A stretch of DNA of 64,000 nucleotides from a virus. Its lineage: Duplodnaviria > Caudoviricetes. The notes beneath the pieces were generated by a model. It did not search any database and was not told where the DNA came from. It saw only the letters and a program-made list of their open reading frames with translations. Made by a program: the position numbers and the translations under genes. This document shows, in pieces, positions 3,998 to 49,304 of this stretch. Numbering within the stretch: position 1 is the first letter of the stretch; each line of letters opens with the position of its first letter. The stretch is from positions 32,001-96,000 of the IMG/VR virus record IMGVR_UViG_3300002220_006617, one strand, 5' to 3'.

Positions 3998-5429
3998 ATG
4001 AACGACGATTGCGTATGTAGTGCCTGTTACCGGGACGAATGTGAAACCCGGGACGCCAACGTAAACGTAGTAGCCTGCAGCGATCAGATCAAAAAAGATG
4101 ATCTTCTCACTGAAAAACAGATCACGGACCTGGTTGAAGCCATCATTGAAAACAGTTGCAATGACTGTAAACAATACTCGATCCCATTGAGTCAATCAGA
4201 TTGCCACTGTGACTTTGTTGCTGACACTATCGTTGATGCAACCCACAACAACAAAGAAGAACTGCGGGCCTGTGCCATCTGGGAACACTACCAGGACCTC
4301 CACATGAAATCATTGAACCTCAGCAACAACAACTGCCCGGTATGCCACGCCAAAGATTGCATGGACGGCAAAGAAGTTGTAATCGCAGATAACAAAGCTT
4401 TCCAGGATTGCTCCTGCACAGAATGCGGTAAAAGTTTCCAGCACGAATATACCCTAACGGCTGTCCGGGAATACATATAACTCATTTTTTAGGTGAACTT
4501 TCATGATTGAAATAGACAACGTCATTGCTATCCGCACCGAACATAAGTCAATCATCAATAGAATTGACTCCAGTCGGAAAGAGTCAGTAGAATTACTGAA
4601 AGAACAAGAGGCGAAGTACCGTGACGAAGAGTACCGGTTCGAAGGACTCAAACGAAAAACAGAAAGTCAACGAGCTGATCTCAATACTGCAACCGATAAA
4701 GAGATCACCAGCCACCGGATAACCATACGGGATATCGAATTGAAGTATCTCCGGCAGCTGGCATTCAGCAACATCCGGAACCACTACCCCCATGAATTCG
4801 AAATGGACTCCCGCGACGCTGAATCCCGCGGAATTGTTGAAGAACAGGTTATCTGGACACACCCCCTGGTTGCCATCATTGCCCGGTACGTCAGTAATAC
4901 CGGAAGGTACAATTCAAAACCAGTCAATAAAATTGACTATTCCGTAAAAGTCTACTTTCATAAGGATATGAACCAATGGCTTCGTGACATTGAAGGACAT
5001 TACACGGCCTGGGATACCCGGTACTTAATCGAGAAATCATTCCCAACTGTTGAGGCTGCCAAGAAATATCACGAACGAAACTCGGCCAAATACATCGAAC
5101 CTGCGATTGCCAACCTCACGGCATTCACCCAGGAGATCGATAATACAACATCGAATTTCGAACATCTCTTTGATTTCCGGTACCTCACCGAACCTTACCT
5201 CAACCGCCATCACAGCGGCGATAACTCATTCAAGATCCTCAAAACCGAGAAGTCAATACTGACTCTGGACGATGGGATCACAATTACTCTTGAAGGCAAC
5301 AGGTTCATCATTGCAGGGCCGCCATCACTCGACATCAACCCACGAGCCAGCGAAGGTTGGGATTATTCCCCCCGGGCCCAGATCCTTGGAGCTATTGAAA
5401 CAGAATTCAATCTCCATAAAATCAACTAA
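3998..5429 (+). other. Cys-rich Zn-ribbon protein (3998-4480) and coiled-coil hypothetical protein (4503-5429)
   Basis: Several CxxC pairs; long ORFs. Confidence 0.55.
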
Positions 5430-5957: not shown

Positions 5958-6611
5958 ATGCAATCACAGACGAGAGGGTCATATCATAAGATTCTAACCT
6001 CTGAAAAAGAACTAACGTTAACTGCCAAAAACGCACGAAAATATTTAGAAAAATACAGAGAAGTCTTTCCAAATTCCGAGCGTAACGATACGTCGATAAA
6101 AAGCATCTGGAACAACCGGCATAAATGGGAGAAAGAACTAGGAAGAAAAACCCCGGCCAAAATCAATCGAACACCCATCCCGCGGCAATCTAAAAAAGAA
6201 ACAGTCACCCTTCATCCCGCGGTTGTCCCGCACGGTATGCTCGGCAACAAGATAGGCGACCTTGAAAAACGTATGGTTGTCGAGTCCAGAACCTTTGACG
6301 AATTCACAACCAAATATCGTGAAATCTATCCCGAGACTGACCGAACCAACACCAACCTTTACAGCATTTACGGCAAACGTCATCTTTATAAAAAAGATTT
6401 CACCATCACTCTGGCACTCCCGGATAAAAAGAAAATCACCACCCCTGCAACCCCTCCGGCAGTCCCTGAAAAAGACATTAAGGACCTCATGATCACCCAG
6501 AATAACCTGCTCGCCGAGATCATCCAGTTACATAAAGAAACCATCCAGCTCAATAAAGACACATATGCATTATTCGATGAACTCCGAACAAAAAAACCAA
6601 AAGAACCATAA
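5958..6611 (+). CDS. Hypothetical protein with two YRxx(F/Y)PxxxR repeats
   Basis: YREVFPNSERN and YREIYPETDRT internal repeats. Confidence 0.55.
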   Translation: MQSQTRGSYHKILTSEKELTLTAKNARKYLEKYREVFPNSERNDTSIKSIWNNRHKWEKELGRKTPAKINRTPIPRQSKKETVTLHPAVVPHGMLGNKIGDLEKRMVVESRTFDEFTTKYREIYPETDRTNTNLYSIYGKRHLYKKDFTITLALPDKKKITTPATPPAVPEKDIKDLMITQNNLLAEIIQLHKETIQLNKDTYALFDELRTKKPKEP

Positions 6612-6801
6612 TTGTCCTATATGTCCCATAATTGTCCTAAAAAACCAGAATATAACCAAAGTGACTTTTATTTCCACAGACAATTGAACAATATGATAAA
6701 AAAACCAGATAAAAGATCTAGTTCTTATGTAGCATCATACGGTTTATGAACATAGGTCTACGACGTAAAACGAACTCTTCGGAATTTCCGAATAGTTCGG
6801 C

Positions 6802-7231
6802 CTCCACTGGAAATGGACCACAACTCCAATGAAATACCACCCCTTTTCACCAACCCCTCACGTCAGACTTTCGTAGAACAAACATTTTGTGACTACTTCC
6901 ATAGAAACCTATTTAAAAAAGCCCGTTCAACCATCCACCGTCGATAATGATGTACGGAAACGATTGCCCTCCCTCCACCGGGCTTTATGGAAGATACCTA
7001 GACGACCTTGGAAACCAGCAATGCGGAGTCTGTAAACGATACAAGGCCCTGATAGCATTTCCTCTTACAATCAAGAACGGTATCTGTTATTACGACCATA
7101 AATGCAAAGAATGCAGGAACGTTACCAATAAAGAAAACTATCAAAAGAAAAAGGTTGTTGAAGTTCCACAGGAAATGAAACCAAGCCCATCCGACGTGGC
7201 CACCCTTAGAAACGTAATGTTTCCACTGGAA
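6802..7231. promoter_or_regulatory. Cluster of ORB/mini-ORB-like sites (candidate origin or Orc1 operator)
   Basis: GTTTCCACTGGAA at 7219 (reverse of TTCCAGTGGAAAC), CTCCACTGGAAA at 6802, GTTCCACAGGAAA at 7163, weaker copies at 6824 and 6896. Confidence 0.45.
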
Positions 7232-7264
7232 AATAACAGAGATCTAAATACTTCCGACTCCTAA
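6947..7264 (+). CDS. Zn-finger protein of the HNH-associated type
   Basis: CGVCKRYK...F...CKECR. Confidence 0.5.
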   Translation: MMYGNDCPPSTGLYGRYLDDLGNQQCGVCKRYKALIAFPLTIKNGICYYDHKCKECRNVTNKENYQKKKVVEVPQEMKPSPSDVATLRNVMFPLENNRDLNTSDS

Positions 7265-43683: not shown

Positions 43684-45495
43684 TCCCACTCAAGAACTCA
43701 TGAAAGCATGCAAGATCTATCAGTCATGCCTGAACGAAGTCAACCGGAACCGGCTGGCTGCAGGAGATCCGCCAGTTGCATATCTCAACCCGATAGCCTG
43801 CAACTGCTGTATTGACCGGGACCACACGCTCGACGAAGTCAAAGAACGATTGGCCAACAGGAAAATCAAAAGTACCTGTAAATGTCTTAATGACGACATC
43901 CCGCTCTGTCCCTACTGTGAACACAATGCAAGTCCGGGAGATACCTGCCCGGACGGATACCACGAAATCTGCAACGGCAATCCCGGTCACAAATGTCACA
44001 ACTGCAAAGGCGACGATGCGCCGTTCGCAACATCATGCACCCACTGCGTATCAAAATGTACCCGAGGATAGACCATGCCAGAATTCAGAATTTTGTTCAT
44101 TGACCCCCGCGGGGTCAACATCGAAGCGCCAACCGAACGAGAAGCAGTAGCGATCGTCATGGATCGGGAATGGGAACACGGAATGGACTGGAGTGACGGC
44201 AAAATCGAGATCATGTCAGTCGAGGAGATCTGATGATCCTCAACAAACGGGACCTCATCCACAAACTCGACGGGTTAACCGTCAGACTTCGCTGTCAGGC
44301 CGGGGCATTCATTGCAATCGAAGGCGTCCCGGACTTCAACGCTGCTGACATCCGGCTCAACCGTCTCGGCAAATGCCTTGAAATGTCGAACTACCTTATC
44401 CTCATGGGAACTGACGGTCAGGAGATGACAGAAACCACAAAAGCCCATTACGACGAGTTCATCCGATATCTCAACGAATGTCATCAGGCATTTGAAATAG
44501 GAAAGAAACCAGCATGATCAACTACTTCACCAAATCCGAAGCCCAGGCAAAGGTCGGTAAACGGGTCAAAACCAAAATTGAATTCTACCAGTTACCGGCC
44601 GGCACTACCGGGAAAGTCACCGGAATCTACAGTGGCTGGCGCAATGAAAGTGGAGTTGACATCACCTGGAACCGTAATCCACCCATCACTGACGGCTTCT
44701 CCAAAGACGAATACGAAGAGTTCATCGAGGAACTGTCATGACCCCGGAAGAAGCCAAGAAAGTAGCGGCACTCATCTGGTATGCATCTCACGACAATGCA
44801 GACGCTCCAGTTGACTCAATGCTCGATGCAGTAGCGATCCTGCCTGAACTCAAACCTTACGCCATTCTCCTCGCAAAGAAAGAATGGGACGTAAACCTCG
44901 AAATCCCTGAAGGTAATCAACCCGATCCTGAACTCACAGGACTCATTGAAGATTTATTCGAATGGACCGCCTGAGCCGCAGGCTCTAAAGAATAAAGGGG
45001 GCCCTCAAAGCCCCCGACAAGGTCCAGAATCGAGCCGTGTCTTTCATAATAAACAATAGAATACACATCTACATGATAGGTTCACATCCTACAGTAGACA
45101 TCCTAATGGGGCTGCCGCCCCCTTCAACCCCTGCTTCTCATCAATATCATCCTACCAACAACAAACCAAATCCCACATCACCGCCTGAGACACCGAATAT
45201 ATATAAATGCCCTTATACTACTACAAACTTTCGCAGAAATACCAAATCTCAACAATACACCGATAATTCACAGTCCAATCAGTAAAAACACCGCAAATTT
45301 GAGCCGGCACAAGCGGTTGGCTCTGCGGAATAGGGGCGGGCGGGTTCGCAAGGTAAGGCGGAGACCGTTACAGTTTGGGCGATACCCTGTCATCCAGAGC
45401 ACGGGCGGGCTCCGATCTACAGTTTGCCGGAGCATTATTGGCGGGATTCGCAATCGGGCTCTATTTTACAGTTTCCGGCAGGGACCTGGCAAAAC

Positions 45496-45819
45496 TGTTA
45501 CAATCAGACTGTTTCCGGGGCAGGGCCCTTTCACATGTTACCGTCTGAGGTTACAGTTTGTTACCGTCTGGCACCGTCTGTAACAAAAGAATGTTACAGT
45601 TTGTTACAGTCAGACTGTTACAGTTTGTTACAGTCAGGTGTAACCGTCGACACAGGCGGTAACAGTTGCGGGTGTAACCGTCGGAAGTGTAACAGGTGTA
45701 ACCGTCGACACTGACGGTAACAGGAGAATGTTACCGTCTGACACCGTCTGTAACATTCAGGTGTAACATTTTGTTACAGTGACTTTCGTTTAAGTGTAAC
45801 AGTGTAACATTTTGTTACA
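45496..45819. repeat. Array of about 22 GTWAC sites (iteron/operator-like)
   Basis: TGTTAC/TGTAAC/GGTAAC recurring mostly every 8-23 bp, ending at the ATG of 45819. Confidence 0.85.
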
Positions 45820-46148
45820 TGACAAAAAGCAACGTCAAACGAATCACAGAAGACTCAGAAGCAATTGCACTCAGTTACGGCCCGACAATCTCAGATGGCA
45901 TCATTGCTATGGCAAATCTTATCGGAAAACCAACCCCGGCACCAACAGTTTCCGCGATACCGTCACAACAGACAGTTTCTGGCGGGGACCTGGAAACCAT
46001 CATCAGAAAGATAGTCCAGGAAGAGGGCGTCACCTTATCGCCGAAAGCAATTGAGACGGGCATCATGCTCAGCAAGAAACAACGTGGGTTCTTCCAGAAC
46101 CTCAATAATGCATTGATCATGGCCATGAGCCGTGAAAACAAAATCTGA
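45819..46148 (+). CDS. Putative ribbon-helix-helix-like DNA-binding protein
   Basis: NVKRITEDSEAIALSYGPTISDGIIAM beta-alpha-alpha pattern; late-type promoter at 45779. Confidence 0.5.
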   Translation: MTKSNVKRITEDSEAIALSYGPTISDGIIAMANLIGKPTPAPTVSAIPSQQTVSGGDLETIIRKIVQEEGVTLSPKAIETGIMLSKKQRGFFQNLNNALIMAMSRENKI

Positions 46149-46379
46149 TTTTTTCAAGAATATATCCAATAAAACCCGGGCCGCGAAAGACCGGGCGATT
46201 ATCAAGAAGATCAGTCAAGCCGGCGAGTAAGTGTCACGGGTGACGATCAACGCTTTCAAGAATAGTCTCGCCTCAACCACAGTTTCCGGCTGCAGGAACC
46301 GACGGCCGGTTGGAGTGGGGATGCTCATCGCCATGGTTAAATACCCGATTACGCCAGCACCCAGACGGACAGACCCGAC

Positions 46380-46616: not shown

Positions 46617-46654
46617 TTTATCCGGACTGTACGGACTAACGAGTGTCTCTCGAA

Positions 46655-46668
46655 AAAATTACCAAAAG
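46655..46668 (+). promoter_or_regulatory. Class I motif AAAATTACCAAAAG
   Basis: AACGAGTGTCTCTCGAAAAAATTACCAAAAGGTACT identical to the 37.5-kb copy; ATG 10 nt downstream. Confidence 0.75.
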
Positions 46669-46724
46669 GTACTTTCGAATGAGATCACGGTTTCGTCACA
46701 TGATCTTGTTCAGGAAGTATTGAT

Positions 46725-47311: not shown

Positions 47312-47454
47312 TCCCCCGGCGCGCCTGGTCCTGATGAACCAGCCACTCTGGGGGACGACCCCCTATGGTCCGGTTGGGGATAGTCGGGCCCTGCGTCCTG
47401 ACAGTCGCAGACCCCTGGGCGGCGCTGATGCGCCGCTGTCAAGAACAACCCGTA
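47312..47454 (+). repeat. Structured block A, copy 1 (TGAT/TGAC hairpins)
   Basis: 47373-47454 matches 49223-49304 with about 4 mismatches; GCGGCGC-TGAT-GCGCCGC. Confidence 0.85.
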
Positions 47455-49102: not shown

Positions 49103-49304
49103 TGGGGCTGGCCCTGATGGTCCCACCCCACGGGGTTATACGAGATGTCAACCCCCCAACCCCCCTCTCCAGGGGGGCTAGGCCATACGGTCCTGGACGG
49201 ACCGATGGCCAAATGGTGTATTGTTGGGGGTAGTCGGGCCCTGCGTCCTGACGGCCGCAGACCCCTGGGCGGCGCTGATGCGCCGCTGTCAAGAACAAAC
49301 CGTA
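49103..49304 (+). repeat. Structured block A, copy 2
   Basis: TGAT loops at 49115 and 49276, TGAC loop at 49249. Confidence 0.85.

Follow-up and report, generated by a model that had tools for sequence, protein, structure and literature searches.

A dense GTWAC array at the start of a new small-protein gene in a large archaeal tailed virus: a candidate expanded operator set

The locus and its place in the genome

The window studied here is a stretch of 64,000 nucleotides, corresponding to bases 32001-96000 of a 127,665-bp IMG/VR virus record, and coordinates are those of the window unless given as genome positions. At genome 77.5 kb, an array of short GTWAC sites lies directly upstream of the gene for a 109-aa protein (45819-46148, + strand), with a PAPS reductase gene upstream and the scaffold and capsid genes downstream. 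The array thus sits at the junction of a long early/replication block and a regulatory/morphogenesis block, and small ORFs with non-coding modules occupy the ~5.5 kb that follow the 109-aa gene on its 3' side. The genes adjoining the array encode products of 70-154 aa, which have no match in PHROGs or Pfam and no ATPase signature. No Rfam match was obtained between 44500 and 51800, and neither the DNA of the locus nor the protein encoded by the gene matched anything in the phage collection searched.

All samples of origin are methanogenic hydrocarbon-degrading communities. The MCM gene is split between both ends of the 127,665-bp record, the same locus is found at another offset on a 127,827-bp ENA contig, and the record ends are joined by a Logan contig of 115,923 bp that starts at window position 49269 and reaches round to ~37505. 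The split gene, the differing assembly breakpoints and the bridging contig therefore support a circular map of ~127.7 kb. Besides MCM, the virus encodes Orc1/Cdc6, an ERCC4 nuclease, an anaerobic ribonucleotide reductase and a DNA methylase, and its morphogenesis genes include those for a Mu-type portal, TerL and an HK97-type capsid protein. A candidate with a weak DUF3383 match (under the Pfam cut-off), and with tblastn matches to the phiCh1/phiH tail sheath, suggests that the virus also has a tail sheath. Almost every gene is carried on the + strand, and no integrase was found when one was looked for in the virus genome. A TerS homologue (genome 2205-2735), TerL (genome 2732-4627) and the portal gene together span 2.2-6.9 kb of the genome, ~52 kb from the array.

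Upstream of the array, between 44975 and 45299 (+ strand), lies a non-coding spacer in which no gene was called in five assemblies. It contains a conserved box, AGGTTCACATCC (45078-45089), with exact matches in the relatives L017 and L020; a T-arm-like reading of this box was dropped, as its flanks are unpaired in both. Four degenerate ~49-bp repeats follow at 45340-45535 (+ strand), with the core TACAGTTT / ACAGTTTSSGG at 45369, 45418, 45467 and 45508. An earlier note on this DNA had described such repeats at a period of about 50 bp; its cores at 45369 and 45467 were recovered, whereas the one assigned to 45417 is really at 45418. The + strand of the genome carries TACAGTTT seven times, six of them at the array locus, and a further ACAGTTTCCGG word lies 3' of the 109-aa gene (46279-46289, + strand). 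Copies of the ACAGTTTSSG word also occur inside the gene, in the part that encodes the protein's linker (45945-45996, + strand). There, a 25-mer at 45972 matches the spacer word at 45468 in 22 of its 25 positions, a second collinear match pairs 45370 with 45945, and no codon shuffle out of 1000 reached the score of the spacer/linker word match. The genome's G-poorest 150 nt, at 45122-45272, are followed by a G-rich segment at 45300-45450; the change in + strand composition noted earlier is hence real locally, but it marks no genome-wide skew switch.

The array, its promoter and the adjoining gene

The GTWAC pseudo-palindromes occupy 45497-45818, with no strand assigned, and number 22 in 322 bp, which agrees with the previously reported figure of about 22 GTTAC/GTAAC sites over ~325 bp. 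The whole window contains 148 GTWAC, and 20 of the 22 in the array fall within 45537-45818; at the density of the rest of the window, 0.64 would be expected per 322 bp (Poisson P = 2.4e-26). This is the densest GTWAC cluster of the 127,665-bp genome, at 22 per 330 bp against seven for the next best. The last site, a GTTAC at 45814-45818, abuts the ATG at 45819, again as described before. Gaps of 10 bp and of 13 bp, each occurring five times, are the commonest, followed by gaps of 19-20 bp. Rather than repeating one unit uniformly in tandem, the array consists of composite operators with a few single sites, and direct repeats are mixed in it with inverted dyads. The composites are of three kinds: the 17-mer TGTWACAKTTTGTTACA spaces its cores by 10 bp and occurs five times (45549, 45592, 45616, 45762 and 45803); the 27-mer TGTTACCGTCTGRCACCGTCTGTAACA spaces them by 20 bp and occurs twice (45559 and 45729); and the 26-mer TGTAACCGTCGACACNGRCGGTAACA, also present twice (45639 and 45697), spaces them by 19 bp and has inverted ACCGTC/GACGGT arms. 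The 17-bp operator word of the array is TGTAACATTTTGTTACA.

The genome has 19 copies of the extended word TGTWACA, 13 in the array and six outside it, where composition alone would predict ~15, and its dyads are found in the array and nowhere else in the genome. As word and dyads are confined in this way, the site appears to have no regulon beyond the locus. A Rayleigh test for one helical phase over all 22 sites gave a result no better than that from shuffled gaps, so that a single regular filament is not implied.

A TGAC-TATA promoter, TGACTTTCGTTTAAG, lies at 45780-45794 (+ strand), its TGAC followed by TTTAAG at 45789-45794, 39 nt before the ATG, and is thus located within the array, as the earlier note had it. 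The same TGAC-N-TATA arrangement stands 39-43 nt before 13 other starts, mostly of structural genes, with eight in the morphogenesis block; given the latter, it is reasonable to label the promoter at 45780-45794, on its sequence, as late-type. Because the distance from promoter to start is fixed, the 39-nt spacing further suggests leaderless or near-leaderless mRNAs. Two of the 17-bp dyads flank this promoter, one (45762-45778) abutting the TGAC box and the other (45803-45819) covering the start, and one more GTWAC site lies between TATA and start.

The sequence indicates that the ORF at 45819-46148 is a real gene, whose product belongs to a new, previously undescribed family without a Pfam, PHROG or PDB match. 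The family comprises six homologues (from a profile-free exhaustive search, at 78-122 aa, with one more from a metagenome scan). Single-protein pattern scans of viral contigs gave no relatives, none of the five members tested had a Pfam match, and a profile search of the PDB with the 109-aa protein likewise returned nothing. Its layout consists of an N-terminal domain (residues ~5-36) with the conserved motif V[KR]ITE..IAL.YGP[TS]VS.GI, then a variable linker (~37-57) and, at the C-terminus, a conserved helical domain with the motif RK[IV][VL]QEEGV.L.P..K..FQNLN..L...S.HNKI. When run on a single sequence, AlphaFold2 performed poorly (pLDDT 38); from a five-sequence alignment, the monomer was modelled with an extended segment (residues 1-10) and two helices (11-20 and 24-36), at a pLDDT of ~83 for residues 11-30, beyond which the linker is disordered and the C-terminal domain has three helices. 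Since strand-helix-helix is the topology of a ribbon-helix-helix (RHH) monomer, it is plausible from this model that the N-terminus is an RHH-type DNA reader. The earlier description of the product as RHH-like accordingly holds for predicted topology, but not for significant sequence or fold similarity: Foldseek and VIA found nothing for the modelled N-terminus and only generic helical matches for residues 52-109, and Atlas features pointed to DUF5371 (0.79) and to a cluster in which 17% of members have RHH_6 (0.75), both below the lead threshold. Alternatively, the three-helix C-terminal domain, for which there are only weak helix-turn-helix leads, could be the DNA reader. Rep, winged-helix initiator and AAA+ signatures were not found in the protein.

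The gene and its sites in related viruses

Pairing of gene and sites was read in L017, L015/L016 and L020, the homologues P0023 and P0025 standing outside this comparison. The region before the homologue in L017 (P0024) contains, in order, GGTAACATTTTGTTACAG, TATA, TGTAACATATTGTTACAG and ATG, and there is a match to the window's dyad at 17 of 17 nt. In L020, which carries a further homologue, the order is TGTTAAC, TATA, TGTTAACATATAGTTAACA and ATG, so that L017 and L020 share a succession of site, TATA, dyad and start. Paired boxes reach the ATG in L015/L016 (homologue P0022) too, where six GG(T/C)AACC boxes are set at 11-bp and 22-bp steps. The form of the site before the homologous gene is accordingly TGTAACA-N3-TGTTACA, GGTAACC or TGTTAACA, and in all compared relatives the core is of GTT/AAC type and paired cores are separated by 5-6 bp. 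The earlier note had named absence of the array-gene pairing from related viruses as a finding that would speak against its proposal; as the pairing recurs in all relatives with readable DNA, this is not the situation encountered. L015/L016, L017 and L020 additionally carry ORB-like boxes (CTCCACTGGAAATAC, CCAGTGGAAGGGGAGG and AGTGGAAACC) and an AT-rich stretch 150-250 bp from the homologue.

An analogous module exists in L010/L021 and L013, which are relatives by their capsid protein (53-56% identity). Around the start of a small gene, these genomes have 6-9 TGTTAACA boxes in two clusters, and within the 20 kb read this word is confined to the small-gene module. The gene lies between PCNA or PAPS-reductase genes and a TerS-TerL-portal-MuF-scaffold-capsid series. 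The window's array thus shares the replication/morphogenesis junction with these modules, its own TerS-TerL-portal genes having moved to 2.2-6.9 kb. Using hhalign, the family of the 109-aa protein (A1) and that of the L010/L013 small protein (A2) were not significantly similar, either over whole proteins or over the N-termini alone (P = 0.012), and on this basis we make no claim that they are homologous. A search of genome contigs with a profile from the A2 alignment found nothing. An A2-family homologue from Archaeoglobus, on a 2.08-Mb contig where it probably lies within a provirus, starts with MLTKS, at the methionine that overlaps the last box; this start resembles the MTKS of the window's 109-aa protein.

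Possible functions of the array

With moderate confidence, we read the array as an expanded operator set for the 109-aa protein encoded directly downstream. It is most likely that the adjacent protein binds these sites and represses its own promoter, given that gene and sites stay paired in relatives, that the word is confined to the locus, and given the geometry of the promoter; binding, its stoichiometry and repression of the promoter are all predictions from sequence. Because GTWAC is two-fold symmetric, each GTWAC (extended, TGTWACA) would accept one dimer, and sites 10 bp or 19-20 bp apart would hold two dimers side by side. Occupation of the dyads at -57 to -41 and -16 to +1, together with the site between TATA and start, would allow the protein to silence its own promoter, while the remaining ~16 sites may enlarge the operator into a big cooperative nucleoprotein complex at the junction of gene blocks. 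Such a complex could act as a steep switch, tied to the ratio of protein to genome copies, and may form a barrier at the junction, insulating the early block from what follows. The earlier idea of a nucleoprotein site with an autoregulated binder hence gains from the pairing of gene and sites in relatives and from its analogue in the capsid relatives, the binding step itself being a prediction.

Operators of this general design are familiar from Arc and Mnt (P22), CopG (pMV158), SvtR (SIRV1) and AvtR (AFV6), small RHH-type proteins that sit as a dimer of dimers on a pair of half-sites separated by one helical turn, at operators of 1-4 sites that overlap their own promoters. The 17-bp TGTAACA-N3-TGTTACA dyads would fit this pattern by analogy, although the present locus differs in its 22 sites, in the extra conserved C-terminal domain of the protein and in the lack of detectable family similarity. 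Expanded operator arrays are a kind of element already known from plasmids and phages. The locus holds 22 sites where the relatives have 4-9; autoregulation needs 2-6, to judge from the relatives, and so does not explain the surplus. Almost nothing is known about regulation and genome maintenance in viruses that infect methanogens and related archaea. A predicted operator, TGTWACA-N3-TGTTACA, is now defined for such a virus, as is a new small protein family whose sites can be recognised in the sequence of several lineages. Should the complex on the 22 sites have a function besides repressing its own gene, it may offer an entry point to DNA organisation in large archaeal viruses, with anchoring, copy-number sensing, or insulation of the early from the late programme as possible extra roles; if it serves only self-repression, then the locus is a well-documented case of operator amplification.

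The same architecture also recalls plasmid segregation sites, and the protein might instead coat the array as a centromere-like segrosome that positions or segregates an episomal genome with a host motor, an unrecognised motor or none. The promoter of a small, putatively autoregulated binder with a conserved C-terminal tail is surrounded by numerous short repeats of either orientation, a layout that matches parC and parH, and the circular map and lack of a detected integrase both fit an episome. In omega (pSM19035) and ParG-parH (TP228), boxes of 4-7 bp, direct and inverted, form runs of 7-12 or more that include the binder's own promoter. ParH is described as an array of short degenerate boxes (PMC3130281), and omega heptads and parH combine the roles of repressor and platform (PMC2441792, PMC3130281). 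At parC, the repeats precede the operon, either in one run or interrupted by the promoter; each iteron takes one dimer, and the C-terminal tails bind the motor (PMC5016525). ParR of R1 and pSK41 is likewise a small dimeric binder with an N-terminal strand-helix-helix and a conserved C-terminal part, which represses itself and places one dimer on each of at least ~10 short repeats enclosing the promoter (PMC5016525). The arrangement by which ParMRC systems are recognised, a repeat array upstream that encloses the promoter, is present here too, with binding predicted from the conserved pairing. The parallel with ParR-parC is limited in that no ParM-like gene is detectable, the setting is an archaeal virus, sequence homology is undetectable, and the repeats are 5-bp pseudo-palindromes in several kinds of composite rather than uniform 11-bp or 20-bp iterons. 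Omega and ParG, moreover, have an adjacent ParA-type ATPase (delta and ParF, respectively), which this genome lacks, and omega controls several promoters, whereas all sites here are at one locus. Searches of the 127.7-kb genome gave no match to the ParA-type ATPase profiles PF13614 and PF01656 (controls positive in 14 of 14 genomes) or to the tubulin profile PF00091 (controls positive in 13 genomes); the ParM profile PF06406 also had no match in the genome, but neither did its control. There is also no motor gene beside the array, the small neighbours bearing no ATPase signature; the relatives keep only 4-6 sites; and the Archaeoglobus A2-family homologue probably resides in a provirus, a setting that needs no partition. 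The centromere suggested in the earlier note thus receives no positive evidence, and we regard this role as unlikely. It is similarly doubtful that array and protein make up a self-contained complex that anchors or segregates the genome of a large episomal virus, motor-independent or dependent on a host motor, and that this complex is conserved as a portable module where replication and morphogenesis genes meet, throughout a clade of archaeal tailed viruses; if true, no centromere-like element would have been described from a virus of archaea before.

In lambda O/ori, iteron plasmids and archaeal ORB/mini-ORB origins, direct and inverted repeats lie at the promoter of the binder and repeat words reach into its gene. 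An iteron-type origin or copy-control element, in which direct 10-bp repeats serve as origin or in handcuffing and dyads autoregulate the binder, would accordingly be compatible with the mixture of repeats seen here, as in iteron plasmids and lambda O/ori, and with the recurrence of upstream words in the linker-coding DNA. It would also agree with the proximity of the homologous gene to ORB-like boxes and AT-rich DNA in L015/L016, L017 and L020, with retention at 45078 of AGGTTCACATCC, a box from the ORB-like region of relatives, and with the AT-rich segment flanked by two site clusters in L010 and L013. The array itself differs from such origins, however, in having no strong AT-rich element, being outside the genome's 15 most AT-rich spots, no ORB-like (TCCANTGGAAA-type) box between 45000 and 46400, and no initiator-like domain in the 109-aa protein. 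The second most AT-rich 120 bp (6608-6730) adjoin ORB-like boxes at 6803-6850 and about 7218, and this combination makes 6608-6850 a better origin candidate for the virus's Orc1/Cdc6 and MCM; the surroundings of the viral cdc6 gene contain no repeat array. An origin at the array consequently seems improbable to us. That terminase, with the small protein acting as specificity factor, recognises the array as a pac/cos or genome-end signal is very unlikely. The array does lie at the left edge of the morphogenesis region, and the analogous TGTTAACA module of L010/L021 and L013 is 1-2 kb upstream of TerS-TerL, but in this genome the TerS, TerL and portal genes are distant, the map is circular, and a 6.4-kb contig crosses the array with even contig depth (20-25x, from assembled contigs, not reads). 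In all relatives, furthermore, the sites extend over both the promoter and the start codon of the gene beside them, which points to the product of that gene rather than to terminase. Still harder to credit is a decoy or sink for the factor that recognises GTGAC/TGAC late promoters, although GTNAC covers GTGAC as well as GTWAC, and one TGAC promoter is found within the array. What the late promoters have in common is AAGTGACATTC-N-TTTTTAAC rather than TGTWACA, which is rare outside the array; the arrays of relatives use GTTAAC or GGTAACC, counted as non-GTNAC; and with the extended word and its dyads essentially restricted to the array, nothing ties GTGAC to the protein. Returning to the reading as an operator set, not every element of the locus need belong to the 109-aa protein: the ACCGTC-containing operators and the ACAGTTTSSGG words could be those of a second protein.

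Genome map and packaging genes

The viral genome map is circular and near-complete, because a 115.9-kb Logan contig spans both ends of the record; the record itself lists the genome as linear and 83% complete. A single MCM gene is divided between the record ends (genome 1-941 and ~126.6-127.665 kb), and length arithmetic against the 127,827-bp ENA contig would put the amount of sequence absent from the record at ~21 bp if that contig has a 141-bp end overlap. Genes encoding TerS, TerL and a Mu-type portal (genome 2205-6910) lie outside the window, and ~77 kb separates them from those for scaffold and capsid; in relatives, by contrast, all five genes form one contiguous block. TerL is 631 aa long here vs 435 aa in relatives, with a surplus of ~190 residues located near the N-terminus; it matches no intein family, and a search of this virus for a MuF homologue found none.

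A candidate replication origin, and the surroundings of the array

The 120 bp ranked second in AT-richness across the genome fall within window 6608-6850, adjoined by boxes resembling archaeal Orc1/Cdc6 origin recognition boxes (CTCCACTGGAAATGG and CTCCAATGAAATACC), and another such box (GTTTCCACTGGAAAA) lies at window 7218-7232. These boxes are similar to those upstream of the 109-aa gene's homologue in a related locus (L015). As a candidate for the Orc1/Cdc6-dependent origin, the region is stronger than the GTWAC array. Around the array, the 150 nt directly upstream of the repeat region (window 45122-45272) are the lowest in G of the whole genome (6% G). Two non-coding modules 3' of the 109-aa gene each hold a copy of an 82-bp repeat (window 47373-47454 and about 49223-49304; 95% identity), and Logan contigs break at 46638-46673 due to copies of the AAAATTACCAAAAG motif.

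The array and its site words in other runs and relatives

Two low-coverage 2025 runs from a different study (X5 and X6) contain the array and gene (window 45358-46236) at ≥99% identity; positions 45670 and 46084 each show one G>A change. These runs include hardly any more of the 7-kb stretch, and their coverage is too thin for interpretation. Outside the array, GTWAC remains in excess across the whole window (126 sites, where dinucleotide shuffles predict about 71), whereas the longer TGTWACA is under-represented (6 against about 15 expected); the genome also encodes an N6/N4 DNA methylase (genome 124043-125287). Upstream of its own origin-recognition-like boxes, the related locus L017 has another, distinct array (736-900), made up of about 8-10 (CA)ATGTACA boxes whose core, TGTACA, is one base shorter than TGTWACA. 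In the relative bearing the TGTTAACA module (L021), a divergent promoter region (4251-4676) looks like a lysogeny-type switch, and the first product of its rightward arm is a 68-aa protein with a weak RHH_8 match. The small gene of the TGTTAACA module has a homologue on a 2.08-Mb Archaeoglobus sulfaticallidus contig, where it probably sits in a provirus.
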